A DNA stretch of 64,000 nucleotides from Vermamoeba vermiformis (lineage: Eukaryota), in the NCBI GenBank assembly GCA_045837725.1, contig JBEWZL010000300.1, positions 1-64,000 on the forward strand. The letters run 5' to 3'. Position numbers and translations under genes: made by a program. Within the stretch, counting starts at the first letter, position 1; the number at the start of each line of letters is the position of its first letter. Shown here piece after piece: positions 5,864 through 60,524 of this stretch. The notes beneath the pieces are model-generated. The model saw nothing but the letters and a program-made list of their open reading frames with translations, was not told the origin of the DNA and made no database searches.

Positions 5864-6445
5864 TCAAATGTTCCTTTCATTGTGCCAGTGCACAGGTACT
5901 GTAGCAAGAAGTAGGAGAAAGTCTTTGGAAAATTGATTCTTCAAATTTTGTCGTGTACAAGGTTGAAATAATGATGTGTTGATGACTTGCTGATCCTCAT
6001 AAATTGTTTGCACGTGCATAATGCACTGTTCAATGTGTTCAGCCTGAGGTACATCATAGTCTTGCTTTTTTCTACTGAACTTTGGCTTGTTTGGAGAAGC
6101 TTCAATTTCATGAGTTTTGCTTCTTTGGTTCAAGGCTTTCTTACCTTTAATTTTTTTGATAAACACTAATGAACGTGGACGAAATGACCCAAGAGCAAAA
6201 ATGTAATAAATAATGAGATAATGAAGCACACAAACAAACATCGTCCTTTTCTCATCCTTGCCAAGGCATGCTCAGGATCAACTATGGACCATCCCATTTT
6301 TGTTATTGCAGTTTATCATGGTTCAGGAATGTATCCCTAATGCCTCACATCACATTAAATTCCATGGTCATTGAACTTGCTTGGAATAACAAAGGGGCCT
6401 CCTTGTTCTTCATATTGCCTCCAACAGTCAGAATAACTAACCATT
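5864..6445 (-). pseudogene. Decayed coding fragment in CpG-poor DNA
   Basis: Minus frame reads VSYSDCWRQYEEQGGPFVIPSKFNDHGI*CDVRH*GYIPEP**TAITKMGWS. The interspersed TAA/TAG/TGA stops are compatible with C>T decay. Confidence 0.35.
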
Positions 6446-6586
6446 AAAAAACACAGCTTAAACATAAGCTAGCTCAAAAGGGTTTGGCACCAATACTAAT
6501 GCTCCACCAGCTAAGATTGTCTTTCCATTGCTGCTGGGTGGAAATTCCTTCTACACATCATACAAAACCCCCCAATTTTATTCAAA

Positions 6587-9500
6587 TTACACTTTTCTAC
6601 CAGTTTGCTTTTGAATATACTGCTTATCTGCCTCAGTCAGCTCATTGAAGGCAGACTTGGCTATAGATGTGAAATTTCTAGAAAAGCATTAGCTTAGAGC
6701 ATAGAACTATACAAATTGAAGTGTTACCTTGCAATATAATCAACACACTCCTTTAGCAAATCCTTTTGGCTATACAATGAAGCAAGTGTTAGCAACTGGC
6801 AAACATTGGTCTTGTTGATCAATCGCTTCAAAATTGATTCAGCAAAGTTTTGAATTGTCTCCAACCAAAATTCATGCGCATGCACAAAAATCTGCCACCA
6901 TGTTAGAATGAAAATCCAGGTCAACACTAACATACCTCTGCAACTTCCACAACATCGTCATCTACAAATGTCATCTTGTCACTGTAGATATATGCAAGAA
7001 TTCGTTCAAATGTTGAGCAGCTAATGTCATGAAGTTCAATAGCCGTTGCCGCACCTTCTTTCCAGAACGACCCTGGATGGAACATATTTCTAAAATACGG
7101 GCACCGTGCACTGAAATCAAGTTAGACTAGAAACGCACATAATACTGTTTACCTTAAGATAAATTTGTGCAATTTGTACGCTTTCTGCTCAACTTTAACC
7201 TCAATATCTGAAAATTCGGCCATCGCCTGGATTTGTGCGATTTCGGTGGCTAACGTGGAGTACGTAGCATATTGTTTCTGCCAATATTAGTACGTAAATA
7301 CGATAATCTTGATCGATTACTCACAACACCCAACATAAAGTAGCACTGATCTTCCAAAAATTTGAATTTGTAACGCGCTGCAAGCTTGGCTAAAATGTCA
7401 AAATCGACCCCATCGATGTTCGTTTCAAACACGCTGTCGCAGTAGATAAACAGCAAGAAGACTGCCAAACAATGAATATGTGCTGGTTATAATTAATCGA
7501 TACTTACGTCTGAATTCTCTTGGCGGCACTCCTTTTACAGGTATCTCGCGGAGTTTCGGATCTGAAGCAAACAACTTTCGGAAGTATTCGCTGCGTGCAG
7601 CTAACACTATTTTGTTCACCAAGAACTCCCGAGTAACACCATCGTGTTGGACAACAAATTTCAAATCAGAAAACGCATTTGACATGCCAGTGATAAAAGC
7701 TTGAGACAGGTCGCGCGACATTAGTCCTAATCCGTCTAAAAAAAATTAGCCGTCGAAATAAGAAATAAGCTGAACCTACCAGAGACCAAGTACATTGGCT
7801 GTTCAGGGTTTGACACCTGCACTATTTTGGCAAATTGTCGTGCTGGATATTCAACAGTGACCATCGCACAACGATCAACCCCTCCTTTCAGCACACCAAT
7901 GTGTTCTGGCAAAAGTCAGTTACCAGTTTACACCACTTATCACGATAAGCACTTACCAGTGGCAATCATAATAATTGATGATGCGCATTCGATATCAAAG
8001 ACTTTACCCCAAAAATCCTGCACACTAATCAGTCGATAGGAGTCTCGGTCCCAATAGAATGCAATTGTTTTGCTCCTCTCGTAATACACAAAGAAAGAAT
8101 GCTGGCCTATTAAAAAAATATTATTTTGTGCGTTTTGCTTCACGAAGTTCTTACTTGCAAATATCTTAAACGGCGTGTATCGATAAAGCGTTCGAATCTG
8201 TCGTGCGTAGGCATTTGGTTCGTCCTCATTCACACTCCCAACCAGATAGAGTTCGTCTGAACATCAGGTTAATACGTAAAGTTTAGACTTAAGAATTACC
8301 TTGTGTTGCAGCCAAGCTGTACCCCGCTCCTGCAGCAATGTTGTAGACGCGGTATTTCGTTAATTGAGGCAATAAAGCCGGTACCATCATATCTAAATTG
8401 CCATCTTCGCCTGTTGCCATTTGTCCGAACGCTCCGCTGCCAAAGCCCCAAACTCGCCCGGCCGCTGATCATCAGATTAGTCATAAAAAGATCATAGTGC
8501 ACTTACAATCGAGACAAATAGTGTGGCTACGTCCGCAAGCAAGTTTTGTGATCCGATTGTTCTGAAGGCCATTGAATTTCACAAGATAAGGCTTCGGACG
8601 GGAGTACGCTTGTTGACTCGTTGAAATTTGGTCGAGAACTGCAACCTCATAGCCGAGCTTTCCATTCGACACTTGGCCCCACGCGTAGACATTGCCGCTC
8701 TCGGTAAGTGCAACCGTATGGAACTCACCAAAATCTACTTGTTGCACCTTTTCACCAATGGGTAATTGCACTCTTTGAGGTGTTCTTCGGCGTAGAGTGT
8801 CTTCAATATAATTGCCACATTGTCCGCATTCATTACTGTAAAATTGTTAATAATCAACCAGCTTTGCTGCTACTTACTTTCCGAACATCCATAGGTTTCC
8901 ATCCGCCGTTAAAATCGCAGTAACATCGTATTTCTGCTTCGCGAAAACAATGTTGGGAAGCAACGACAACATTTCGTCCACAACAATGTCATAAGACCCG
9001 TTGACCGTGTTCGTGCACACCTCGCGGAAAACCATGCCGGTTGTCTTTGTGGTATTTTGATCTTCGTTTTTAATACTCGTGGGCGGTGGCATCGCTTCTT
9101 GGATCGTAGACAAGGGCTTTTCAGTAGTCGATGGAGCAACAGGGATATCTCCTTTCCGCTCCATTTCAACTGACAGTTTCAGCTCACGTGATAACTTCAA
9201 TGCCGCAATCTTTTGTTGAAGTTTCTTCTCTTCTTCACTTGGTGGAACTCTTTCAGGGATAACCGATAAGTTCACATCGACTTTGTCTCGTCTTCGCTCT
9301 CGCTCAATATCGTTTCCTAAGAGGTCGTATTTGACATGATCCAGAAGCGCATTGATGCGCAGTTGTGAAGCATTCGTATGATTAATTAACAAACTAGGCG
9401 GCGTTGAGGTAGGTCGTCTAAACCATCGCTCTAGCTGCATCGAAAAATTCTCCGTAGTTTGCTCCAATTCTGTTGAACAAGCGTTAGAAAGAACGAAACA

Positions 9501-11723
9501 AAAACGATATAGATACCTTGTTGCAAATAATCGAACATATCCCGATCTTTGTCCTTCGGGAAAAAGAAGCCAAATGCATAAGAACAGCTCAAAATTTGTC
9601 GACAAAGGACCAACTGACTGGCTGCCTCCAAGCCGTACTCGAATAAAGGGTTCTTGTACCTTTGCAAGGTATTATACAGCACTTTGACCATTTTCTCCGC
9701 AAATATTTTTGATTGTTGATGATTTTCGTAGCGAATCACTAAAAGCGATTAGCAAGCATTACAAAAACAACGAAAACTTACAGTGGTGGTTGTAAAACGC
9801 TGAATCGTCCATTTTTCTCTTGGTCTCGTCGTCGTACGACACAAGAACTCGCCCTTTGGGACGATTGCAGACATAGAAACCCGCGTGGTCAGTCCACGGA
9901 CCATTGCACACCCAACAGAATTCATACTTGCAGCGCTACAACTAGAGTTAGACTTTAATTCATAATGAAATCTGACATACACGGCACGTCATATGATTGC
10001 AGCCTTCGTTCTTTTGAATAAACCTAAACATGTCCGTCAATAGCGGCAAGTGCAACGTGGAAACTTACACTTTACATTTTGGGCAGAGTTTTGTGTTGGT
10101 TCTTAACCACGCCAAACTCTTCTCTTCATCCAATCGTGACGACTTGGTGAAGTCAGCTAGCATTTGGCATGTTGCTGGCGCGTGCGTTTCCCTGCAAATT
10201 AATCAACACATGGCTTAAAATATACTAACGTACGTGTTGCACTCGAAGCAGAAGGCATAGCCACACGAGCACTTTGCGTAGTTGTTGTACAAAAACTCCG
10301 ACTTCACGACGCAAGAGTAACGGCAATACTTTCCAGGGCACCAGCGAAGGTAGGGATTGCAGTCGACATAATTCTAATTACGTTAATATGAGAATACATT
10401 ATTTTCCTCTTGCCTTCAATAACAGAATGGAGTACATATTGTACGTTGGCTTATCCACTAACTGCTTCACGATATCCTGACCAATCACTGTTTTGCAATT
10501 GTAACCAGGGCAAGTAATGTCGTAGCTGCGACCCTCGTCACGGATTTTGAGTGTCACATAAGAGCGATAGCAATCTAAAGACATTAGTAAATTTACTAAA
10601 CGTGCGCTAAATTGAATATTACCCTTGCAAAACGCGTGGTTACAGGTTTCTAAGAATACGATGTCGTCTGGCTCCAAGTCATCCGTCATGCATAGCTCGC
10701 AGGAGGAAATAGGAACCGACGAACTCTTGTTGAGCGCTGAGATATTCAAGCCAGCCTCTTCTAACGTTTCTTTTGGAAATGATAGGTAGCGAGCCATAAC
10801 CCTGCAAGTGTTAAGCGTGTATCAGCATTATGTAATCTTACTTATCGGACCGCCACTTAAAGTGGTTTAACAACATTTGGGCTACTCCTCTTGGCACGGA
10901 GAGTACTTCGGTGAGCTAATCGACAGTGAGCCAGTGACAATTACGCATGGGTTAGGGTTCAACTCACCTTTAATACGTCCTCTTGTTGAATTTGAACGAG
11001 TTCTTCGGGGCTGTAAGAAACAGAATCTATTTGTGGACGATCGGGGATCTCTCGACTAGCCAAAAGAGGCTTCTCCGACGATTCAATCAACTCGTTGCCA
11101 GAAAAATTACAGAAAGCCAGAGGAACGGGTTGTTCATCGACTGGCTGCACGACTATTACCTCTGGCTGCTCCAAAGCTATTAGAATATTGTCGCAATAAA
11201 TATTGGCGGCTACCTTTGGAGCAGGAGACTGCGAACTTTCCAAGATCGGATCTGATTGCTCTTCGTTCATCGTTCTATTAACGTTTACATGATTATCCGC
11301 GAGCCAATCTTGAGCAAACGTTAACAAGTCAAAAATCATTACTGAACCAATGAGCTCTTCTGCCTAAAAAGACTACTAAGTAAACGTTATGAATAGACTG
11401 CGTTTACCTTATTTGCCATCGCACTTTGTAAATTGCTGATAATTTTTCCATCCAATAATACTTGTATCGATGGCACTTCGTTAGGATAAGCATTGCCACG
11501 TGTAATCGTGATGCACACTAAATTCAAAAAAATTGAAATTTAATTTTTAAAATAACTGAGCTGATTGTTCAAAGATTGGAAGAAAGCCAAAAATCATACC
11601 ATTCAATAACTGATTTTGTGGCACATTATAATTGTAAATACACTCGCGATCAGATCCAAACTGAATTTCATCGTTGTAGATCGCTAATAAAGCTTCGTTT
11701 TCGAGGGCTATCTCCGCGTCCAT
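6587..11723 (-). CDS. RWD - RBR (Ariadne-type) E3 ubiquitin ligase fused to RCC1 repeats and two BTB domains (multi-exon)
   Basis: RWD: ENEALLAIY, AYPNEVPSI, AEELIGSVMIFDL. RING1: CELC..CNHAFC..CPGYNC. IBR: LRWCPG..CSCGYAFCFEC..HAPATC. RING2: TKLCPKC..IQKNEGCNHMTC..FCWVC. Ariadne domain: IRYENHQQS..QLVLCRQILSCSYAFGFF. RCC1: GEFHTVALTESGNVYAWG, ACGRSHT. BTB: FSDLKF..NKIVLAARSEYF and FSDIEV..HKFILSARCPYF. Confidence 0.85.
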
Positions 11724-11972
11724 TTCTAAATAAATATGCTTTCAATATTGCTTTACAATCAACTTGGCATTGTAGCTAGGCCATGATTTTCTGGTTAAAA
11801 TCGCCAATCTATTGAAGTTGCAACAACTCCGATTCGGTCAAGGGAGGATAACTGGCTGCGCCAAATGAGACCGGCTGAAACATTTCGTTATACCGATGGA
11901 CGTCTCGACTTCTAGCTCTCACATGGAATTAATATTTCTATTTGTTTATTTACAGCTTAAATATACGAAAAC

Positions 11973-13059
11973 TTATTTGGGGAGAACCTTGGTGTGCTTA
12001 AGGAAGTCCTTGTATTTCGCTAAGATAATGGAGAAGACACCGAAGCAGATCAACAAGATGGAGATCAAGAACAGCCAAACCTTGCCACCCGGGTTCCGTT
12101 GCAACTCCAGCAAAGCACCTGAATAAGCTACATCAGAGAACGAACAAGAAAGGACGAAAAAGATATGTTAACTTACCACCAAGACCGAGGTTGACAAGCT
12201 GGTGATCACCAGCCACTTTGAAGTACAAATACGCGAGCAAAAAGTAAGTTATCGCTCTGCCAACGTAACCTAAGTAGCCCAAAACCATAACAAGACGGCG
12301 GGCCCAAAGAGGGATCTCCCATTCCTTTAATTGTTTGCGGAACTTGCCTCGGATCGCGTTTTTAAGTTGGAAAGCCCCAGAGAGGGTGAATAAAATACCA
12401 AAAATGATGAAGAAGGCAATACCTCCAGGAGCGTTCAGAATTTTGGCGCTCCAGCTATTCCCCGGACCACCACTGCCACCAGAAACACCACTACCACGGC
12501 CAGTCAAACTGAGAACAACGGATGTAGCAAAGTAAGCGTAGAGGAAAGCAGACCAGATGGGAAGCAAACGATAAGTCAAGATTCTCTTCCATCTTTTCTT
12601 GTTCGGGTCATCTGAAATGCCACTAATTGCTTCGTACAAACGCCACAAGGCGTAGGCGTAAAGTCCAATAATAAGGATCCACAAGATCCATTGACCGCTG
12701 GGCTGACCAGCCAATACTTTTAAATCGATTAGCGACCCGGACAGTACATTTTTATCGTCAAAACTTACGTTCAACGACACCATTCTTGTCGGGAGTAGGT
12801 GCGGTATTACTCCAGCAAGCTGTCATTGCCAAAGCCTAAAACCAATTAGCTTCTATCACTTGAAGCAATACTGTAGAATACTTACACCAATGATGATGTA
12901 AATCACACCACGAGTAATGTAGCCGATCCGGCCGAAAGCACGAGCCCAACGAGGGTTAATCTTTCGTTGCACTCGAGCATCATTGCGGTCCATAGCTTGA
13001 GCAGCTTCGTGGCCTGCTCCTTTAACTTTCTGCACGGCATCACCTGCGTTATCTACCAT
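11973..13059 (-). CDS. DUF1206-like multi-pass membrane protein (3 exons)
   Basis: ARAFGRIGYITRGVIYIIIG, LKVLAGQPSGQWILWILIIGLYAYALWRLYEAI and GALLELQRNPGGKVWLFLISILLICFGVFSI follow the repeated DUF1206 pattern. Confidence 0.75.
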
Positions 13060-13758: not shown

Positions 13759-16700
13759 TTACTGGTTCAACATTTTTTCTTGCTCGAGCTTCAACTGAGC
13801 TAATTTGGCTTGGTACTTCTGCGCTTCGTCAATACGTCCTTGGCGTTCATATAGATCCGCAAGATTCTTGTAACGATTGAGCACGTGAGGATGGTAATTA
13901 CCGAGCGTTCTTTCAGAGATCTCAATTGCTTTTTTAAACATTGGCTCCGCCTTAGTATAATTAAACTGATTTTTGTATACTTGAGCCAATCTACACAACG
14001 AAAATCAGTACGTGCCAAGCGCAGATCTAAATTGATCAAAAATTACCCGTTCAAATTCTCCGCGACTTCGGGGTGTTCTTCGCCAAATAATCGACGATTA
14101 ATCTCAAGAGCACGCAAGTATAACTTTTCAGGCCCTTCGTAATCATACCGGCCTAGACAAAATGTGTTTAGTAACTTTGCACCGGTAAAAAAGCAAAATT
14201 TACCTTGTTTTCGATAAGCTTCCGCCAAATAGTTGAGAGTTAGAGCAACTTTTTCGTGATCTTTACCAAAGTTCTTTTCGAAAATAGCAAGAGCTTGTTT
14301 ATGCAACTCGATACCTTTGTCTAAGTCGCGTCTAGATTGAGCGAGGACGATGGCAAGACTAGCGTGCAAGTGTCAAAAAAAGGTACGTAACTGAGTGTAT
14401 TATTGTGCAAAGACATACCCGTTCAAATTGCCCGCAACAAGCTCGTGTTCCTCGCCGAATAACTTCTTGTTGATGTTCAGAGCTCTTTCGTAGGCAGCCC
14501 ACGATTTATCCCAGAGCTTCAATTTGCGATACACCACACCAAGGTTGTGCACGTAAAGAGCAACCTTGGGATGCTCAGATCCGTAAACCTTTTCGATAAT
14601 TGAAAGAGATCTGCTGTAGAAAGCTTCGGCCTCGTCGTATCTACCGCGCTTCTTTGAAATCATGCCCAACGCGTTCAAATTTTCACTGACCTCAGGATGA
14701 TCCGCACCGAGATACATCTCGTTCAAGCGTAAAGCCCTGGCAATTATTAGAATTGCAATCGAGAACAATTTCAGCTCATACCTCTTGTAAAGCTCGGTAG
14801 CAGCAGTGTACTTCGCTTGGATCGAGTAAACATCAGCCAGGTTGTTCGCAAAGGAGGCGATCTTGTTGTGCTCTGGATCGAATACTTGCTCGATGATGTC
14901 GATAGCCCGCTTAATGTGCTCTATAGCTAGATCGTACTCTCCTCTATGCTTTTCAATCAATCCAAGAGAGTTCAAGTTCTCTGCAATTTCAGGATGAAGG
15001 TCCCCGAACTGCTTCGTGTTGAGCGCTAAACTGCGTTGATACCTGCCACGGTCATTAGTAAGGTCAGAGTAATATTATGATCTTACAGTTCATAGGCCGT
15101 TGAGCTCTTGCCGAGTTTACGCTCCACATCAGCCAAATCCGTACAGATCAGGGCAATTTTGATGTGATCGGCACCGTAAACCTTCTCTACGATATCCAGT
15201 GCTTGCAAGTACAATGGTTTAGCCTTTTCGTACTCTCCTTTCTTCTTCAGTACACGTCCTAAGCTGTCCAAATTTTCGGCCACACTCGGATGCATTTCGC
15301 CGTAAGCGTGACGATTGATGTCCAAGGCTTTAACATACAACTCCTCCGCATTATCGTACGAAGCTTGCTTTCGATAGATATCTGCAAGAGTTTGCATGTA
15401 CATGCCAACAGTGGGGTTGCTCGGTCCGTAGAAGCTTTCGGCAATCTTCGTAAAGATTAGTCCGGTTCGAAATCGTTTGAGAAAGTCATTACCTCGATAG
15501 CTTTTTTATATGCCAAGATAGCAGCAGCAAAGTTACCGCGCTTCTTGTTGATGAAAGCGATAAGCCAGATCGACTGAGCTGTAGTGGGGTGATTTTCGCC
15601 ATACAACTGCGTTCTCAGCACCTTAGTCTTTTCTGCATTTTGCAAAGCGACATCATAAGATGCTTGCTCGGCCTGTAGCGCTGCATAATCATACAAGAAG
15701 TTTGTATACTCCGCAGATTTTTCACCGAAATTTGACTTGAATACAGAATGCGCCATTTCGAAAACTACGAGTGCCTTATTTTGCAAGTCAGTACTAAACT
15801 ACTTAATGCTATCGACAACATACCTTTGAAGGATTTCCAGAGTCTCTCAAAAAGTTGGCAATTTTGTAGCTCAACAAAGCAAACTCGGTTGGCTTCGTGT
15901 ATTGCAATGCTTGAAGAGATTTCAAGTATAATTCTGGCGCTTCGGACAGAGCTTTTCGATAGTGTCAGAACTCGTCTAATATTGTATCTAAGTGCTTACC
16001 TTTGGTCATTTGCCAGTACTTCAAAAGCTGGTATTTGGTGAAGTCGTTGTAAATCATCTTGAACACCTCAATGTCAAGCAAGAACTGCTTCATTCTCGCC
16101 GCATCGTTGATGAACATCAAGTGAGATGGATACTCACTGACTTTACGTGGTGTCAGGGACTTCTCATGGAAGAAATTGGCAAGCAATCTATGGTAATGCG
16201 CTTCGGTAGCAGGGTCGTCCAAGTATCTCTCCTTAATTGCCTGAAGAACACTCTGGTGAGCAATTGAAAGCAGACCCGAAGTGTCAACAAGTGCGTCCTT
16301 CGCAGCATCCACGAAAGAACTCCAAGTGGCTTGCTGGGCTACATTGGTAATTCCGCTTAGCTCGGACTCCAAAAGGCCGTTGTTAGAACAGTAAATCAAG
16401 CACAAAACATCTTTCACGAACTGCTGTGTGAAGTCTTTCTCCCATTGAACAAAGATTTTCTGTGTTTGTCAGTTAACATGTCGATCGACTCGCGAATTTA
16501 AACTTACGTCTTTGAACAGCGAAGTCAAGTCTTTCGCGCGCAAAAGATCGACGATAAACAAAGTCAACTGGTCATACTCGCCAAAGACGCGAAGCTGGTC
16601 GAGTATAGCCACCAAGAACAACGGATTGGCCGTTTGCTTCGAGTCGACCAAGTGGAAGATTTGCTCATGACTCAACTTCTTGCTGAATCTGCTCAAGAAC

Positions 16701-18860
16701 GCTTCGATCAGTTGTCTCTTCTCTTGATTCTTCAACGAGTCCAACTGAGAATAGGAGGTGAGTTAAACTATACCCTACAGTTGCAACTAACTTACGACTA
16801 ACGAACTAGTCCAGCCTTTTCTTGCGCAGGTGTCATACATTGTAGATTCTGATGATACAGTAACGATGACACGCACGTTATTCGGGAATAAGCCAGGCAA
16901 CCAGAGCAGACTTTTTCCCTTATCTTCAATTTGATCGAGGCCATCGAGCACCACAACCTGCATAACACGGTTAGAAAACGCTGGATACGTTTCGCTTCAA
17001 CGTACTGTTCGTGTTTGACCGCTGCACAATGCAAGCCACTCAGACAAACTATGCATCAGCTCATCGGGATTGGATGGAATGTCTTTTACAATGTTGAATC
17101 GCTTCTTCAAGCAACCCAACACGTAGCGAAGCACGGTATTGACATCATTGTGTAACACTCCGATGAAGTCAACAACAATGCCATCGGCCAAGTTCTTTTT
17201 CTTCTGTTCGAGCCACCACGAACTAATGAGCGATGTCTTTCCTGAACCAAGAGGACCCGTAATAACGAGGGGAGTCGATGTATTAGATTCTATGTGCGAT
17301 TCGATTGTGCTAAAGTAATAAGGCTTTCCAATGTATAGATCTGCCTTGTCCAGGGCAATATCGTATTGTGCAGACAATTCACGATCTATTTCATCAAAAC
17401 CTTCGGCCTCATTCAGCGGGAAGTCACTGTGAAAGTTAGGGCGTAGCTAATATAACGCAGAAACTTACCGCTCGATCATAGCAGTCAAATCTTTTAAGAT
17501 CTGATCGGCGACTTGTTCGGGCGTGCGATAGTCTTTGCAAGGCAACTTGCTGTACTTGATCCGTGCTTTCAGATCAATTAACTTTGATCTTTCGTATTCG
17601 CTCTCGGGTTCATAATCTATTCAAACATTAATAAATAGTTGACTTACTACGGACTACGCACTTTTTCTTTCAATGATGTCAATACCGTGAAGGTATTCAG
17701 GATCTCGCAAGTAAAACAAGCTGTTCGTGCTGAGCTCGGGGTAGAACAACGAGCCATACAACATCTCAAGCTCGGTCACACTTCTGTCTGTGTAGGAGGC
17801 GAGCCAAGGATGCAGCTGTTGCGCTTCTTCAAAGCTCTGCCTATAAATAGCAATTTTGATTAATTACCAAATTTGGTCAAAACAGGATCATGACCATTTA
17901 AGGTGAATTTTGAATGCACTCAACGTTAAAATACTCACTGCAATACTTTGTCCATAATAGCTCTGTTTTGAGTCCAACCGTATCGTTCTCCGAGCAAACC
18001 AATCATGTAAGGACGACAGTGATCGATCTACCACGAGATTAATAAATGTATTGATGCACCCAATGGATATTCGCTTGCTCTATTAAACTTACCTCATTTA
18101 AACACAATGAAATAACTTTGCCTCCTGCGGACTCTTCGCTTGTGATACCCCATCTAAAATCTACCCAAAATTAATTATAAAATCGCAAATTAAAATTGAA
18201 TCACACTTACCAACATAAACAAAATTGACTTTGCGCTTCGCACAAACACGCTTGATCTCAGGGAAAACTTTTTTAACTAACAAGTTTCGCTCTTGCTGCA
18301 TATCCCTAAATAAATGTTAGAATACCTGAAACTGTTGTGCTTCTAAGGTATACACAGCCTTACTTAAACGTTGATGAAACAAACAGCTTGATATTTCGAG
18401 ATTTCTTGTTGCGTTCAGTTAACTCGCGAATGTGCTCGAATGAGGGTTTATCCACATATTCTACAGAAGATAGAACGGGTATCTCAGAACTACGTCCAAT
18501 GGATCCGCTGTTCTGTAACGAATCCGTGCCGAAACCTAAAAATAAAATTAAAGACCGATCTAGAAAATTTCCTTTTTAACAAAAGAAAGGAAATAATACG
18601 CAGATAACGTATGAGAACATTCGTGGTAATAGAAATAAATTTTTCAGATTGTCCCTTCAAATAAAATTCAAATTGTATTACTTGTTGAATTCCGTTTCAG
18701 GATCGTATGCAGACTTATTTGTGCACTTACTTCCACTGCTTGATAAATCAACTTCTTGCTCGAATCTTGCATACAGCTCGGTCTTCCTAGCTTCATAATC
18801 CTCTTGGAAGATAAATCCTGATCTAAATAAATCCTCTAGCTTTTCGAGCTCTCTTTGCAT
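13759..18860 (-). CDS. DUF4062 - NACHT/AAA NTPase - TPR protein (nephrocystin-3/TEP1-like architecture) with a SHOCT-like N-terminus
   Basis: LFVSSTF.DMQQER, DFRWGIT, CLNEIDHCRPYMIGLLGERYGW; Walker A GPLGSGKTS; Walker B VVVLDGLDQ; many 42-aa kinesin-light-chain-type TPRs (YGEMHPSVAENLDSLG). Confidence 0.88.
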
Positions 18861-18983: not shown

Positions 18984-21900
18984 ATGGCTAAGTGTGGGGC
19001 TTGTAACGCCTCCACCCAGGACTGTCACACACTATTTGCTTGCACAACATGCGCCGATCCGCACTTCTTACTGTGCGCATCTTGCGAGCCCATGTCAATG
19101 ACGTACCATCACTGGCGTCATAGTTTCCTTCTTATCGAAAATTATGATATCCAAAAGCAAACAAAGGCACCACATTTTATTGCGAATCTTATCACCAATA
19201 ATAAACTTAACGGTAAGCTGACAGATTTTACATCTGAAATTTGGTTGCCGGCTGCCCACCAAGCTTTTGAGGGCCCCAAAAAATATAATTTGCTTACTGC
19301 GTCTAATTTTTAATGGATTGACTTCCAGATGAGGCATACAACACTATTATCACGAAGAAACACAACCAAAAATGCGACTGTTGCTTAGGATCAATCCACG
19401 GCATTAAATATCAGTCGGTGCCTATTTCTACAACCGAGAAAAAAGTAAATTTGTGCGATTCTTGCTTTCACTTGCCTCATCGACAAGATGATCCCCAATG
19501 GTCCCAAATCTTTCTTTGGGTGAAAACAAGATCCTTATTCATGTTAACACAGCAACCTTTAAAGTCATTCCAGGCACGTAGTTTGTTTTACTGCTCGTCG
19601 TTGGACGTTAGCTAAATTATTGACAGGCCGTCGATCTGAAGCAAGACATCGTTAATAATATGCCCCCCGCGTCCAATAAGGCACCTGTTTCGAATAACAA
19701 AAAATCCACTGCTACAGAGAAAAAGGCAAATGGCTACGAGTATAACGCAGAGGACAAAGCTCAAGGTCGTTACACTCTCTACGAACCGAACTCAGAGAAA
19801 GGTGACGACGATATTGACAGCCAGCCTGGACTGCGCACCGGAGTTTATACAAAGAGCGACAACAGCTCTCAAGCTCCGGATAAAGGAAGATACGAAGACA
19901 ACGAAGAGCTGTACAAGGATTCTTACGAGGACAACGAAGAACAGCAGACCAGCAACAAATCAAAAGGGTATTATGAAGACACTCAATACGACACTTATAG
20001 CTATAACACAGACAAATCGTCCACACAGAAAAATTTGTACGAAGATAACAATGAAGAACCTAAAAGCAAAGGATATTATGACAGTAGTAAGGACGCGTCT
20101 TATAGTTACAATACTGACGATAGCAAGGTACCACCATCAAAAGGGAGCTACGAAGATAACGAGGAAGAACAGGAAACGCCATTAAAAGGTTACTACGAAG
20201 ACAATAAAGATGACTCGTATAGCTACAACACGGAGAAACAGCCGAGTCCCAAATCGAAGGGTTATGAAGACAACAAAGAAGATTCATATAGCTATAATGC
20301 AGACAAACAGCCCAGTCCCAAATCAAAAGGCTATTATGAAGACAAAGAAGATTCCTACAGCTACAACACAGAGAAAGAACCGAGTGGCAAATTGAAAGGC
20401 TATTATGAGGACAGCCAAGATGAGTCTTACAGCTACAATGCAGATGACACCACAACGGACAAGCCTGGATACGAATCCAAAGGTCGTGCACCCAAAACCG
20501 AGTACGACGATGGGTATGCCTATAACTCTTCGCACTCTGAAGGAAAAGTTACTCAGACTCCAACCGCCACCGACGGATATGGCAACGAAGACAGCTACGG
20601 TTACAATGTACAATCTGAAGGAGGCACTTACGTCGATAACAGCGAGGCAGAACATGATAAGAAACCAGGAAAAGGATCATACGAGGACGATGACTACGAG
20701 AGCACCGACAGCGATCACTCGGGTGCTGAACCATTTGAAGTGCATCAAGGAGGCTACTTGCAAGGCGATGACGAGGGAGAAACACAAGACGGATATGGTG
20801 CGCACTACAAAGATCGAACTGGATTTTACAAGGACAACGAGAAACCGCCACTCGATGCCTCAGCTCCGATACCCGTGCACCCACCTAGACCCGTAGCACC
20901 AGGTACTGTTCACTTTCTTATTCGCTTTCGTTCTAACTCTATGCAGCTGCGAACGGCGCTCGTGACTGGAATGAAGAGTTTCAAAACATTCAGATTATGG
21001 ATGACTCGACTCCTGAAGCTGCACTGGAGAAGTTGTATCGCATGCACATGCTTTCGAAAGAGTTCACGGAAAAGGCTGTTAAGCTTGGCAAGACCATTAT
21101 CGAAGAGGTCGACAAGCCAGCAGATCAGAAGACTATCAAACCCAAGAATATGGGAGGTGTTGCCGGTGGTGAGAAATACTCCGAGCAAGGCATCTTTTTC
21201 AAGTTCGCCATCGATTTGTTCAAGATTTATGGTGGCGATGAGTTCGCTATCAAAGCGGCCGGTCTCGAGTTACAAGGATTGAAGTGCTTGCTCCAGACTG
21301 GCATTAAGGGATTGCACTATCCGTTGATGATTCTTATTGACTACCGTGGCTATCGATTAATTGGTAAGTGCACGATCGCTACCACCAAATAGTACTAATG
21401 CTGATCTAGCTACTAGCATGCTTCCGCTTGACGCAAACTCGCTGATTTACGGTAGCGGTGATGGTGCTAAGACAATTAAAAAGGAAGACAAGACCTTCAG
21501 CAAGTTAATGAAGCAAGTTGGTGCGAAGCTCAATTTGAAGAAACATCAGGTAGCTTTTGCATTTTAGACTTACTGATCGTATTAACCTTTGCTAAGGTCG
21601 GTTTTGGCGCCATTACTAAACGGCTGTATGCTCCGGCAGACATCGAAGGTCATCGTGGCAAAGATGGACGCTATTACCTGCTCGATACGGCACGTCTGTT
21701 CCCCGCTGAGCCTCCTGCCAGAAACTTAACTGGCCTATTGATTCATGCCTACGATAGAACTCGTGACGAGCGGTAAGTACCTAGTCATTGATACGCAAAA
21801 ACTAAAATTTAATTGCGTAGTTGGCAACCACTGCCTGAGATATCTTACGTGCCCAGTCTCGTCTCAGACAAGCTCATGCGCCAACTCGATGAGTATCTAA

Positions 21901-24900
21901 ATAGTGATTACGAAGTACCAGTCAAAGTAAGCTACTTATTTACAACCACTTTAAATTTAACCTAACACCTATCGCAGATCGAAAGCGAAGAGTTTCTTGA
22001 CGGCACGATGTACTACACTAACAGAGGTCCTATCAACATTCGAGCCTCGACACTGTTAGGCAAAGTGATTCAGGGAGACGTTGTTCTTGTCATGAAGGGC
22101 CGCAAGGGTTCATTTTTGTACAATTTGCTGCGGTAAGTCAACACCATTACACTCCTCTTCAACAGATATTAATTGTTCGACACAGACCCGAACTCGTTGC
22201 CAGTGCGAAGACTCCGCTATCAAGTGACTCGTTCTCACCTTTCGGACGACACGACGGCGCTATCCACAACAAAGAAGTGGAGAATGCTTGGTTCTCGTTT
22301 ATCGAATCTGTGCCTCAAAAACTCGAGACGATGGTCACGGAGTTAGAAGACTTCCTTCCCGACAGATTCACGCGCAGCTTGCACAGATACGGAATCAACT
22401 TGCGACACGTTGGACTCATCAGGTCTCTCAGCAAAAGCAACTACATTGCCAAGCAAGCTCTTGTCGAGATGATCACAAGAATTGCCAAGAACTACGTCAG
22501 GTACGAAAAATTGTCAGAATGAGTATTTTCTTAACACCATTGATAGAAATCGAGTGCGCACGTCCAAAGCTGACGACATTAAAGAGATTATCGTGAATCA
22601 CTTCAATTTACTGCTTGGAAAGGGTGATGCGTCGGACTTTTTCTGGAGATTTGCGATTAAGGTACTCTACGCCAAATCTATTATCGATATCTAACTTTGT
22701 AATTATTTAGACGCAAATTGAAGCAAAATTTAGCAAGGCAAGTTTGGCACTCAACTTGGACGAAAGAAAGTTCCAGTTCGATCTGCGCGACATTATCAAC
22801 AAATTGGCCTTGTTCCAAGTAAGCTCAACTAATAGATAGATGATTCCGATGTAATACTAATGCAATGTAGGTCCTGCAAGAGAAGATTGGTGTTCGCTTT
22901 AAAGACGAAGTGCTCGAGAAACTCTCACTGAATCCTCAGCTGTTAGAGACCGCTTATCCATTCAAACTTGATGATATTGACTCCATCCAAGTGAAGGTCA
23001 AGCACTTGCTCGAGCCTGATTTGACCGAAAAAATTATGGCGTGGATCAAAGAGAACTCTACCGACAATAACATTTTCAATCCGATCAAAGCTAGTCCTTA
23101 TATGGACAAGTTTAGCATTCCGAACACTGAGGTAAGGCGTATCAAATTACTTAGTTGGCTTTCGTTATAACTTCTTACAAGGTCTGCCATATGCTATTGA
23201 ATCAAGCGTTCCGTTTGTTGCAAGAAAAAGATTACAATCAATCAATTGCTCTGATTGAAAAGGCTCAAGAAATTGTCGAGGGAGTCAACCTCTTGCCGAT
23301 TGAAGTCATTCTGAAAATACAATACATAAGGTACTGATTTCACCCCGTTAAATTTTCGTCGCTAACACTGTTTAGGGGCTGTGTTGCTTTATTCAACAGA
23401 AACTATGACCTCGCCAACAAGCACCTCATTTGTGCCTACAAAATCATTACTTCAGTAACGCGCACAGTATCGTAAGTCACTCTCATAATAATAACTATCA
23501 GTCTAACTTCATGGCAGCAACGATAAATTCGGTCGATCTGATCGTCCGTTCCTTTTGCTAATTCTCAACATGCTTTTGAAGTCGGTTTATGACAGCGGCA
23601 ATCGATTGGGCGCTTTGTATTACTCTCTTCAATTCCTGTGCTTTTGGAAACAGTTCCCGTGTCACTGTAAGTTCGCAAGAATTGAACGCGCTAATTATTT
23701 ACGCTGCTGCAGTGCACGAAGAAAATATGCTCTCACTGTTCGGCTATCAACTGCCAATTGCATTGCAGAGTTTACCGGCAATTGCCGGGGAGGGTAACTG
23801 GGCAATCTATCCTGGCTATGAAAAAAGTTTGAATGGCTTTAAACATGTAACAAACGATGTTCAACAGCATCTAATTCGCTCACGTAAGTTTACTTACTCT
23901 TTAAAGCTTGATTCTAATCAGCGACCTCAGTGCTGATGGAACAACGAAGTGGTTTGCTCAGCTTGTCCTCGTTGATGCACAGATTGGATACCAAGCTTGA
24001 CCTTAGCTTGGATATCAACCCATTCATCCGTTATTACAAGAACCTGCACATTTGCCCTCGATTCATCAAGGCGAATCAGTCACAAACGGTCAAGGTAGGA
24101 CATTACGCGATTGGTTTATTTAATAACACCTGAAGGTATACTTGTACGGAGCAACAACGGCTCGACTCACGGTGAAGAACTCGGCTGGAAAACCTGTTTT
24201 TGTGTCAGAAGTTTCCTTCGTTGACTTTGCCACGGAGTTGGTGCTTGATCTTGAGCCCGGCGAATTTACGATGGAATCGGAAGTGATGCTGATGGATAAG
24301 CGCTCGAATAACTTTATAATGAATTCGACGGCTCATTTTTCAGTCATTCCACCACAAAGTAAGCCCTCCTTCGTGTTAGAGCTCGTAATAATGTTTGTTT
24401 TACAGATGGATCGTTTAACTTCCTGCTTGGTTATGACCGCAAAAACGAAGTACCAGTCACATTTATTGTGCCCGATGACAATCCAGTCGAACGCGTCGCT
24501 GTGCACAGCTTACAAAAAATACCACAGGGTTCTCAACCGCGGTCGAGTGAAGATGAAACTAATCCAGTGTTCTATGCAATCAATCGACTTGGAGAAGTCT
24601 GGGAAATGACATGTAAGCCGTATAAGAGTTATATTTGGCCTATTAACACAATCCTAGATGCAAAGCCCATTGCTAGCAAAATAGCCTCGCTGTTACCTTG
24701 GAAGGTCGTGCAAATCGAACAAAGCAGCACGCATTGCATTCTCTTGGCTGCCACTGGCGAAGTGTTTACTTGGGTGAGTTCTATTAATTATCACTTGTCC
24801 ACCCCGAGCATTAATTTACCTACTTCCTTAGGGAACTTCGGAATATGGAGAACTCGGTCATGGTGACACTTCAACCAGATCTGATCCACGATTGGTCGAA

Positions 24901-27648: not shown

Positions 27649-27797
27649 ATAATCTGCCTTGTTAACAAGGATAAGGCCATGTATGTAATTTCATAACTTT
27701 ACCAGAATCTGGGACAACACGACAAGTGTCTTTCTGGGGACAGCACCCCAAAAAAACCGAAAGCGACTTATTTTTGACGGTTCATGCCACGCCTACC

Positions 27798-28952
27798 ATG
27801 CGTCAGCGTCGATACAAGCCTTGTGTATTTTTTTTGCTGGCCGCTTGTGTTGGGCTCAATGTTTTGTGGTGGTTAGCGGCATCCTCTTCAAAATCGGATG
27901 TTGAGATAACCTACCCTCTGAAAATATGTGAAGTGGCTATTGGCATTACTACCACCGCCACCTATAAAGATAGAGTGCAGATGCAAGAAAAGACTTGGAT
28001 TAAAGAAATGTGCGCAGAGAAGTCTAATTATCGCTTCATTACCGACGAAAAACCTGACAATAATAATTATATTTTTTCTTATTGTCCAAACGACTATAAT
28101 TCAGTATGCTGCAAAACGGCAGATCTAATTCACAAAATATACGAAGTATTTCCACAAAAGAAATGGTTCATGAAGTGCGACGATGATTCCTACGTTGTAC
28201 CCAATAGAGTGGTGGATTTTTTATCGACACTTGACCCTAAAGAACCGATACTAACCGGATGTAAGTCTCAGCGCTCCGTCGCTATTAAAGACTCGATAAA
28301 TTGATATATTTTATCATATTTAACGAAGATCAATCACAATACTATTTTATTCAATAAAAAACATAATTTTTTACGTAAATTAACTCCGGATCTCGAAACG
28401 AATTTCTTAACTTTTTTTCTTTAGTGCCGTACTATGTAGTTCTCGAAAATATGTGCACAATACCACGAACACGTCACAATTGTACCGCTGGAAGTCAACG
28501 CCCTCATATTGGTGGCGAATTCAATTACACTGCTGCAGACAACTTTGCGTACCCTGCCGGAGGTATTCATCACGTCATAACGCAATCAAATTATAACTCA
28601 TAATCAACAGGGCCTTGCTATGCTTTCTCAAATGAATTAGCACGTCGAATGGTGAAGTACAATGTCACAAATCACTACTCAAAGTACTGCAACAGCGAGG
28701 CTCCGTTCGAAGATTTAATGATCTCACGTATCGGTAAGTCTTAAAATGCCCTACAATATGTCGTATTAACTCTATTTTGTAGCTCATGATGTCGGTGGTT
28801 ATGTCGTGGATGGATCGCGGTACTTCGATCAAGATCCAGCAAAGAAAGAAACAATTAAATCCGACACAACGTGTTGTTATCACATGTGGGATAATACATG
28901 GAAGCAAGTGGACAAAATTCACGCTGAGTTGCATTCATCAAGCCCAGAATGA
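27798..28952 (+). CDS. GT31 (Fringe / core-1 beta-1,3-galactosyltransferase-like) glycosyltransferase
   Basis: N-terminal TM anchor; KWFMKCDDDSYV (DxD motif); FAYPAGGPCYAFS; FEDLMIS. Confidence 0.8.
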
Positions 28953-58955: not shown

Positions 58956-60524
58956 TTAAGGAGCTTTGTTCGTGTTGTTATTATTAGCTACGACATCGTT
59001 TTTCTTGAACGGATCTTCGATGTTCCATTCGCCATTCTTAGGATTGTATCGGAGCTCGTAAATGACGTTAAAGTCGTTTTGTAGCGGGATCTCCAAGTCA
59101 ATCGGCGTCTCATTATAATTGCCAAAAAAGAAGACTTTGATGTAAGCTGTTTGATAGGCCTTCAGATCCAGCTGGAACTTCAATTTTTCAGTTTGAACGG
59201 CTGTATCTTTCTTATTGTACTTGTACTGCAAGCCCTGGATGATTGTTGCTGGAGTGCCATCCACGTCAATGCCGCTCAATTCCAATTGGTCCAATTTTTT
59301 ATCAACTTTAATTCGTCGACGCAAAATGAACGGTGGAATTTCTAAGCCGAGTTCTTTCATGAGCAGAGTCATGACTTGATCCGTCTTCGCGTGGATCACC
59401 ATTGCTGCATCACTGTCCAAATGAGTTTTCTGCAAATTTACAATGACCAATCGTTTGCCGTTGTTAGCGACCTCTTCCGGCATTGCATTTGCAGGGCTGA
59501 CGGTCAAGCTGGATCCGAGTACTAACATCAGATCTGAGGCTCGAGCGTTCTCAAAGCCTCGCTTCAAGGGCACTTTGGGCAATGTTTCACTGAAATTGAT
59601 GATTGTGTCGTGCAAATCTCCGCCGCAAGATACACAAGTACGGCCGGTCTTGTGATCATGAACGCTGTGTTTGTAGCTCGCTACGGCTCGGAAATCTCGC
59701 AAATATTCTTTGCCGCACGAAATACAGCGTTCCAAGTTGGAATTGCCGTGTAATTCTGAGATCTAAAAGAGATCAAATTTAGTAACCAGATCCACATCCA
59801 TAAAAAGACGTTCAAATATTATTGACTTACCTTTTCTGGCAACATGCCGCTACGTCTATGCAAACCATCGCAATTTTGGCTGATTAAATACTTGAGGTAT
59901 CCTAAGAAAAAAGTTATTAATGACTACTTCCGTGGATCGAGCGTAGGAAAGAGCTCAAATAGGATTATTTATTAATTAAAAATTGCCGTAAAAATTATTT
60001 CATATTATTTGCGTTCAATTTTCATTGTAGATCGATAAAAACGGATCACGCGACTTACCTGTATTTTGCAATTGGACCAAGCTCATATGAGTGGCAGTGG
60101 GCATGGCTTTCAAGGATGATACGGAACGAGTTGGTTCTTTGCCTTGAGCGCGAAGAGTCCAAACACCAGTGGGACCTCTGAAATCTGGAATTCCTGATGC
60201 GATCGCGAAGTTAGCGAAAAGTTATTGAAAAGAATTTTAAACGGTATAATAAATTATTATAAGTGATGGTCATGCTGAATTTCAACTTGGAGTGCGAAAA
60301 AATTAACAAGCAAAAATGAACGTCAATTTTTGAATTTTTTCCGTAAAGACCAAATCCGCAAAATAATTACCTGCTGAAGTAGAGACACCTGCACCTGTGA
60401 ATGCAGTGAAGTGTTTGCTAGCTTTCACCCATTGAGCAAGTTGTTTGACTTTCTCCATGACGACGTTATCGGGATCGAAGTGTTCTTTAACTGCTTCGGG
60501 ATCTTTGTGTGCTGACCAAGACAT
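58956..60524 (-). CDS. Class IV sirtuin (SIRT6/SIRT7-like) NAD-dependent deacylase
   Basis: FTGAGVSTSA|GIPDFRGPTGVWT, SQNCDGLHRRSG, ELHGNS, CISC..CVSC, LHDTIINF.E, LGSSLTV, IVNLQKT. Confidence 0.93.

Follow-up and report, generated by a model that had tools for sequence, protein, structure and literature searches.

Can an Ariadne-type RING-between-RING (RBR) ubiquitin ligase and a substrate-receptor-like module of RCC1 and BTB domains be carried by one polypeptide, and what might such a chain do? The question is raised by a gene on the minus strand of a 64,000-nucleotide (nt) stretch of Vermamoeba vermiformis DNA (assembly GCA_045837725.1, contig JBEWZL010000300.1, positions 1 to 64,000), referred to here as the window. 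An earlier note, made from the sequence alone, had placed a fusion of this kind between positions 6587 and 11723, and these limits match exactly the stop codon (6589-6587) and the ATG (11723) that we found by minus-strand reading and splice-site testing. The spliced frame of 4110 nt (1369 codons) has no internal stop. Its 22 introns are of 40-82 nt each, 21 of them GT-AG and one GC-AG, and most contain a CTAAC-like branch site. The encoded domains follow in the order RWD, acidic linker, UBA-like domain, RING1, IBR, RING2 (with Cys444) and Ariadne helices, and then, beyond a linker about 120 residues long, an RCC1-like domain, a BTB domain and a second BTB domain with following helices (Table 1). 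We hold with high confidence that this is one gene and that a single polypeptide of 1369 residues carries both modules.

The two halves meet within exon 12. The earlier note had read the end of the Ariadne domain and the start of the RCC1 region from a single open frame (8874..9605), and this frame sits inside a longer stop-to-stop open reading frame (ORF; 8874..9671, minus strand, 265 residues) in which ELEQTTENFS, LLDHVK and the RCC1-like TAILTADGNLWMFG are read in one frame. The exon is flanked on both sides by a GT-AG intron, and its 196 codons are open. The alignment with ARIH1, made through an orthologous protein of 1338 residues (P0155), ends at P0155 residue 563, which corresponds to window residue ~594 inside exon 12, and the Pfam RCC1-like match begins about 25 residues ahead of the end of the exon. 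Because the end of the one alignment and the start of the other both fall inside it, the Ariadne and RCC1-like modules do lie together in a single exon. Chance does not credibly account for this, because the 196-codon exon and the 4110-nt frame are both open and the model matches the independent 1338-residue gene model from end to end. Linker 2, between the modules, is 83% identical to P0155 in its charged first part (residues 623-675), 30% identical in the part that follows (676-722) and 89% identical in the lead-in to the RCC1-like domain; it contains two methionine codons, Met678 and Met721.

The open frame, the shared exon, the conserved linker and the presence of a single AATAAA (6577..6582, a motif that occurs nowhere else on the minus strand from 6300 to 11900) agree with the reading of one gene, and two adjacent genes were rejected on the evidence of the frame, the linker and the poly(A) signal. 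A tblastn search of the window found the locus itself as the sole match, with no second copy of any part of the gene.

Transcript evidence comes mainly from run X1, a set of assembled contigs labelled only 'RNA?'. Its 11 joints skip exactly 11 of the 22 model introns, and each of these begins with GT and ends with AG when read on the minus strand. X1 therefore comes from spliced RNA, either of the organism itself or of one very close to it. Seven X1 records are at 99% identity or above and five at 95-99%; some contigs match the window exactly and others diverge by about 3%, a pattern that two alleles or strains would give. The differences found only in X1 number 26 (18 synonymous and 8 non-synonymous) and include no insertions or deletions. 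Six of the eight non-synonymous differences cluster at residues 693-718 (9044-9118, minus strand), in the variable part of linker 2, and those elsewhere fall nearly all at third codon positions. Across the junction, X1 contigs cover 8556-9295: a contig of 575 nt joins 8878 to 8835 and reaches 9172, and a second contig extends the cover to 9295. Intron 6 (10413..10374, minus strand; 40 nt), the apparent GC-AG intron with the ends GCAAGA...TTAG, shows no joint in X1, and the P0155 protein crosses its junction without a gap. The RNA reads of X8-X10 come from a third, more distant relative (90-99% alike, with 28 of 29, 30 of 33 and 26 of 26 reads in the three runs fitting only partly). They touch both halves and span the spliced joint of exons 12 and 13, but do not themselves show the fusion.

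These data also bear on the possibility that the two halves are made as two products, through an internal promoter, alternative splicing or cleavage, and that the fusion is an artefact of the gene model. Two sets of observations count against a single chain and would fit this alternative. The X1 contigs leave 9296-10373 uncovered (with a depth of zero at 9404-10373), and no X1 record links the RBR half and the linker; in the orthologue, the linker apparently holds an intron, so that the fusion rests there on a predicted splice. On the other side, no stop codon lies between the halves, the contigs of the RCC1 side reach upstream of both Met678 and Met721, and the first part of linker 2 is conserved as protein. 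Furthermore, the X1 changes cause no frameshift, the sole AATAAA follows the last exon, and the depth of X1 contigs is similar in the RBR and RCC1-BTB halves. We consider two separate products very improbable, and we return to the single chain in what follows.

The orthologues were found through the junction exon. A search with exon 12 for longer proteins gave one match among 1333 candidates, P0001, a protein of 898 residues (73% identical) from a contig of 3182 nt, whose cluster at 90% identity has eight members. Two members of this cluster from another species, P0155 and P0156, have 1338 residues each and the same domain order, and carry the automatic name 'ariadne-1' in their source. From end to end, the window model and P0155 have the same residue at 1017 of the 1334 positions aligned (76%); of the 39 gap columns, 31 lie in linker 1. 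There is no insertion or deletion at any exon junction, including those of the GC-AG intron and of an in-frame intron of 48 nt (8154..8107), and all junctions of the model are thus supported at the protein level by an independent gene model. Four orthologue ORF pieces of 159 residues (P0152, P0153, P0157 and P0158) run from the interior of the Ariadne region to '...ELKLSG' and a stop. They cross the position of window intron 11 (9470-9516) unbroken, and their stop lies near ~9165, where the window has no intron. This suggests that the orthologue genome may lack intron 11 and have an intron in the linker, with loss and gain of introns between the species.

To judge how widespread the architecture is, we rely on protein searches that were mainly word-based and restricted by protein length. 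With residues 1-300 of P0001, only P0001 itself was found among 3033 candidates of 493-1572 residues. With P0155, ten of 7195 candidates of 735-2342 residues matched at E = 1e-5 or better, and among these ten only in the P0001 cluster is the RBR side combined with both RCC1 and BTB. The remaining nine are a chytrid protein of 908 residues, six proteins with ankyrin repeats and an RBR-type IBR (three of them also with the Pfam Ariadne domain), IBTK and one RCC1 protein; the best named match to the RBR side outside the cluster is a protein of a chytrid fungus, at 31% identity. The 908-residue protein (P0159) itself has two UBA_ARI1 and two Ariadne stretches, and may be either an Ariadne ligase duplicated in tandem or a merger of two genes. 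In a search of P0001 against 1.84 billion representatives, the best 150 matches were swamped by RCC1 repeats, a background in which weak fusions are undetectable: nearly all are of ~800-7200 residues, every one has its best stretch in the RCC1-repeat region of the query (top score 470.5 bits), and one is a short fragment of 134 residues at 74% identity. Pfam found neither IBR nor BTB in the 32 of these matches that were scanned, all of 1578 residues or shorter. Scans of metagenome contigs with exon 12 and with alignment A1 gave 298 and 101 pattern matches, but tblastn confirmed none of them. In the ESM Atlas, the closest clusters resemble RCBTB1 at a score of 0.76, short of the 0.9 level, and serve as leads only. 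A MAFFT alignment (A2) of P0001, 13 exon pieces and IBTK was dropped, since 6 of the 13 pieces were at or below 45% identity, against 74% for the whole protein. Searches of the open full-text literature for the architecture or its parts, with subscription journals and domain-architecture databases outside the scope, found no paper on an RBR-RCC1-BTB protein, and the matches are reviews or studies of single components. The architecture thus occurs in the organism of the window, in X1 as a strain or allele nearly identical to it, and in one other species at 76% identity, and was found nowhere else; the suggestion that it is rare stands for the protein databases searched, in which none was found beyond the P0001 cluster.

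As had been proposed, the RBR half belongs to the Ariadne (ARIH1) type. Among solved structures, ARIH1 is the best match: P0155 residues 164-563 align with ARIH1 residues 104-515 (E = 7.7e-60), from the UBA-like domain into the Ariadne domain, followed by ARIH2 (E = 4.2e-50) and the RBR region of CUL9 (E = 3.3e-35), with HOIL-1 and parkin far weaker. P0001 residues 2-123 likewise align with ARIH1 389-515 and ARIH2 363-463 (E = 3e-4 to 6e-4). Pfam was run on 22 exon pieces of the window model, with matches judged against the curated cut-offs. The UBA-like domain precedes RING1, as membership of the Ariadne subfamily requires, and UBA_ARI1 (PF21235) scores 28.8 bits on exon 4 (cut-off 26.9) and 32.7 bits on P0155 171-210. 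The RING1-IBR-RING2 triad, with the cysteine of RING2, aligns as a whole with ARIH1. Within it, Pfam RING matches to RING1 are weak and below their cut-offs, both on the exon pieces and on P0155; the IBR scores 33.6 bits on exon 7 and 69.9 bits on P0155 (310-372), and the RING2-type IBR_1 scores 51.8 bits on P0155 396-434, with IBR_1 and IBR_2 also matching exon 10. The catalytic cysteine in GCNHMTC, said earlier to be intact, is residue 444 of the spliced model, encoded at 10001-9999 in exon 9 (10023..9981). The Ariadne region is 91% identical between the window model and P0155.

Residues with a known role in the regulation of ARIH1 are largely kept. The relevant part of one study reports that mutating F430, E431 and E503 relieves the autoinhibition of ARIH1, and that F430 and E431 form a 'switch-helix' kink on binding of CUL1-RBX1 (PMC7904520). 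In the P0155 alignment the positions of F430 and E503 are F and E, the latter in exon 12 (TTENFS). In HHARI, as ARIH1 is also called, V123, I124 and W140 of the UBA-like domain are required for binding of neddylated CUL1, and deleting the N-terminal 100 residues abolished or reduced binding to CUL1-NEDD8, according to sections of a second account (PMC3817463). The three UBA-like positions are I, L and W, and are thus conservatively kept.

Ahead of the RBR half lies an RWD domain. On the separate exon pieces of the window, Pfam gives no match for RWD, or for Ariadne, and the assignment is made through the orthologue: the RWD model matches P0155 6-99 (E = 7.3e-10; 39.5 bits, cut-off 22.8), and the window is 77% identical to P0155 in this region, which bears out the earlier claim of an N-terminal RWD domain. 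The closest solved RWD domains in the PDB are those of RWDD1 (E = 6e-4) and GCN2 (E = 4e-3). Linker 1, which follows, has a net charge of -12 over 96 residues and is 60% identical to P0155. The note had also called RWD-RBR the architecture of RNF14. The domain order, an N-terminal RWD followed by an RBR, stands; the equivalence stops there, for the RBR core, with its UBA-like domain and Ariadne region, is most like ARIH1. The protein as an RNF14 orthologue was rejected for this ARIH1-like core.

The RWD domain nevertheless raises the possibility of a ligase of the RNF14 kind, in which RWD would dock GCN1 at stalled ribosomes and would place and activate the RBR in the role otherwise given to a cullin. 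The domain is real by Pfam, is conserved between the orthologues, and has its closest solved relatives in RWDD1 and GCN2; RNF14, an RWD-RBR ligase, binds GCN1, most likely via its RWD domain, in the part of the preprint that deals with it (bioRxiv 10.1101/2022.03.21.485216). Against this stand the ARIH1-like core just described and the fact that GCN1 binding is not universal among RWD domains. We regard this as improbable when taken as the main mode of action, although it can coexist with the other explanations considered here. Because the RWD domain resembles those of RWDD1 and GCN2, and RNF14 binds GCN1, an input from GCN1 or the ribosome via RWD is a real possibility, whether as a rival or as an added feature.

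The C-terminal half consists of an RCC1-like domain and two BTB domains, as was first proposed, by its Pfam matches and its collinearity with IBTK. Pfam RCC1, RCC1_2 and WD40_RLD match exons 13-14, with RCC1 at 66.0 bits on exon 13 and 33.5 bits on exon 14. P0155 has three RCC1 repeats by Pfam (716-917), where a closed seven-bladed propeller has seven, a WD40_RLD match of 124.9 bits that is under its 150-bit cut-off, and two stretches that match BTB (PF00651; 111.5 bits), in agreement with a BTB fold. The RCC1-like domains of HERC1 and HERC2 match at E = 1e-21 to 1e-25; a HERC-like ligase was rejected for lack of a HECT domain. Nor did Pfam match a cullin domain on P0155. An AlphaFold2 single-sequence model of P0001 was unusable (mean predicted local distance difference test, pLDDT, 35.7; predicted template modelling score, pTM, 0.24; 830 of 898 residues below 50).

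BTB domains that act as CUL3 adaptors have a phi-x-E contact loop and helices after the BTB domain (the 3-box), and RCBTB1 is reportedly linked to CUL3. For the second BTB domain (BTB2), encoded in exon 21, KLHL3 is the best match, with Kaiso weaker, and W-K-E of BTB2 falls on M-S-E of KLHL3 in the alignment, a loop that we take to be the CUL3-contact phi-x-E motif. The alignments with SPOP and IBTK extend beyond the BTB2 core into the following helices. IBTK is collinear with the protein, at 27% identity in the RCC1 region and 25% in BTB2 and its helices (IBTK 714-912), and its match to the first BTB domain (BTB1) is weak; IBTK is the substrate receptor of a CUL3 ligase, as the pertinent part of its description states (PMC4447969).

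From the conserved residues we propose, as a plausible but tentative mechanism, a CUL3-coupled pair of ligases in one chain, that is, an Ariadne-family RBR ubiquitin ligase that would carry its own IBTK-like substrate-receptor module. The RCC1-like domain would bind and present the target, and BTB2 with its following helices would dimerise and dock the N-terminal end of CUL3, as the two BTB domains, the alignment of the KLHL3 loop and the collinearity with IBTK lead us to infer. Next, the neddylated CUL3-RBX1 end would contact the UBA-like and Ariadne regions, either in the same chain or in its partner within the dimer, and this contact would kink the Ariadne helix and free RING2. RING2 could then take ubiquitin from an E2 bound to RING1 and transfer it to the target that the RCC1-like domain holds, with the long, partly disordered linker 2 giving the reach between the ends of the cullin. 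A wider version, in which BTB2 recruits neddylated CUL3-RBX1 to switch on the attached RBR and RWD couples the ligase to GCN1 or the state of translation, must be called doubtful.

Several features weigh against a CUL3-coupled mechanism. The position of E431, the third autoinhibition residue of ARIH1, is Ala; the N-terminal 100 residues of HHARI are replaced by RWD and a poorly conserved acidic linker; and BTB1 has a shorter loop without a confidently placed phi-x-E motif. In addition, the canonical RCC1 repeats are only three by Pfam, with ~125 further residues that are degenerate and 57% identical between the orthologues, and the Pfam Ariadne model (PF19422) has no match on P0155 at E up to 1. 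The first three of these, with the acidic region that HHARI requires for cullin binding replaced, fit an autonomous RBR ligase in which the RCC1-like and BTB domains only bind targets, localise or oligomerise, CUL3 has no part, and release from autoinhibition, should there be any, comes from a different partner or from association of the protein with itself; many BTB domains do only oligomerise. Against such a ligase stand BTB2 and its helices, which resemble the BTB domains of CUL3 adaptors (KLHL3, SPOP and IBTK) more than those of transcription factors, and the conservatively kept UBA-like residues for binding of a NEDD8-modified cullin, and we consider it somewhat unlikely.

Table 1. Features of the gene in the window, ordered along the minus strand, with the polyadenylation signal last.
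Feature	Position	Strand	Residues	Basis or remark
Whole coding region	6587..11723	-	1369 in total	23 exons, 22 introns, 4110 nt spliced
RWD domain	11286..11723	-	1-104	Exons 1-3; Pfam RWD on orthologue P0155
Acidic linker 1	10998..11285	-	105-200	Poorly conserved
UBA-like domain (Ariadne family)	10771..10997	-	~201-245	Pfam UBA_ARI1 on exon 4
RING1	10495..10701	-	269-321	Aligned with ARIH1 RING1
IBR	10167..10373	-	349-403	Pfam IBR
RING2/Rcat	9885..10085	-	431-467	Aligned with ARIH1 catalytic motif
Ariadne helical region	9330..9818	-	~490-622	Ends inside exon 12; ARIH1 alignment
Exon 12, junction exon	8878..9469	-	577-772	Ariadne end, linker 2, first RCC1-like strands
Linker 2	8976..9329	-	623-740	Charged conserved part, variable part, conserved lead-in to RCC1-like domain
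RCC1-like domain	7781..8975	-	~741-1063	Three canonical repeats, then ~125 degenerate residues
BTB domain 1	7325..7735	-	1064-1185	Pfam BTB 38.5 bits on exon 18
BTB domain 2 and following helices	6590..7277	-	1186-1369	Pfam BTB 35.1 bits on exon 21
AATAAA	6577..6582	-		5 nt past the stop codon

The neighbouring genes are unrelated to the ligase gene. The upstream neighbour on the same strand (12133-12822, minus strand) encodes a DUF1206 membrane protein (E = 2.1e-12), and an X1 contig at 11765-11915, between that gene and the ATG, could be the 5' untranslated region (UTR) of the ligase or the 3' UTR of the neighbour. At ~14400-17446 (minus strand), large ORFs match TPR_12 and TPR_10, nephrocystin-3 TPR and helical domains, and an ATPase domain, and the gene looks like an ATPase-TPR protein of the NPHP3 or NLR kind. 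A CLU/eIF3_p135-like gene lies at ~19624-22522 (plus strand), with an exon matching eIF3_p135 and CLU at 22022-22522; the open frame of 552 residues just upstream of that exon (19624-21282, plus strand) has no Pfam match and is probably part of the same gene. Further along the window are a Fringe-like glycosyltransferase exon (27675-28304, plus strand) and a Sir2 exon (58956-59762, minus strand).

What would such a chain add to what is known? Ariadne RBR ligases and cullin-RING ligases act as two-enzyme assemblies, and a chain that joins the RBR to a BTB receptor-like module would provide genetic evidence from nature that ligases of the ARIH1 type and CUL3 receptors are partners. If the proposal is true, the fusion would be a natural 'Rosetta stone' showing that RBRs of the ARIH1 type work with CUL3 receptors of the IBTK kind, and it would give a compact system for the release of an RBR by neddylation and for the reach of its catalytic domain. 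With its additional RWD domain, the protein might also be tied to ribosome or GCN1 signalling. The value of the case is limited by its occurrence in a narrow group of related organisms and by a mechanism that is read from sequence.

Each known system shares a part of the architecture and departs from it in another. ARIH1/HHARI has the UBA-like domain, RING1, IBR, RING2 and Ariadne domain in the same order, and the window protein retains its catalytic cysteine motif, F430, E503 and the UBA-like V/I/W or has conservative substitutions there. However, ARIH1 has ~557 residues and ends after the Ariadne domain, whereas the window protein is about 750 residues longer, has RWD and an acidic linker in place of the acidic N-terminus, and has Ala at the position of E431. 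We know of no RCC1 or BTB domain in RNF14/ARA54. That protein is alike in its N-terminal RWD followed by an RBR with the RING2 catalytic cysteine (as described in part of bioRxiv 10.1101/2022.03.21.485216, RNF14 being compared by description and not by sequence), and different in that the RBR core of the window protein is like that of ARIH1.

For the C-terminal half, IBTK is alike in having three Pfam RCC1 repeats and then two BTB domains in the same order, but it has N-terminal ankyrin repeats and no RBR; the similarity is low (pairwise E = 7e-12 and 1e-11) and does not establish that the module as a whole descends from a common ancestor. RCBTB1/2 also combine RCC1 repeats with BTB, but have one BTB domain and no ligase domain. 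In HERC1/2, RCC1-like domains are joined to a cysteine-dependent ligase domain, but this is a HECT and not an RBR, and there is no BTB domain.

To our knowledge, the only natural covalent fusion of the Ariadne RBR and cullin-RING systems described so far is CUL9 (PARC). Like the window protein, CUL9 has a component of a cullin-RING ligase and an Ariadne-type RBR in one polypeptide. Its RBR is activated by neddylation of the attached cullin, the combination is called unique, and CUL9 is vertebrate-specific, in the part of the account that treats these points (PMC11257990). By analogy, a hard-wired fusion of the cullin-RING and Ariadne RBR systems therefore has a precedent in CUL9. The fused partner in CUL9 is the cullin itself, whereas in the window protein it is a module like a BTB substrate receptor, with RWD in addition; what is new here, as far as the predicted domains indicate, is the substrate-receptor side as the fused partner.

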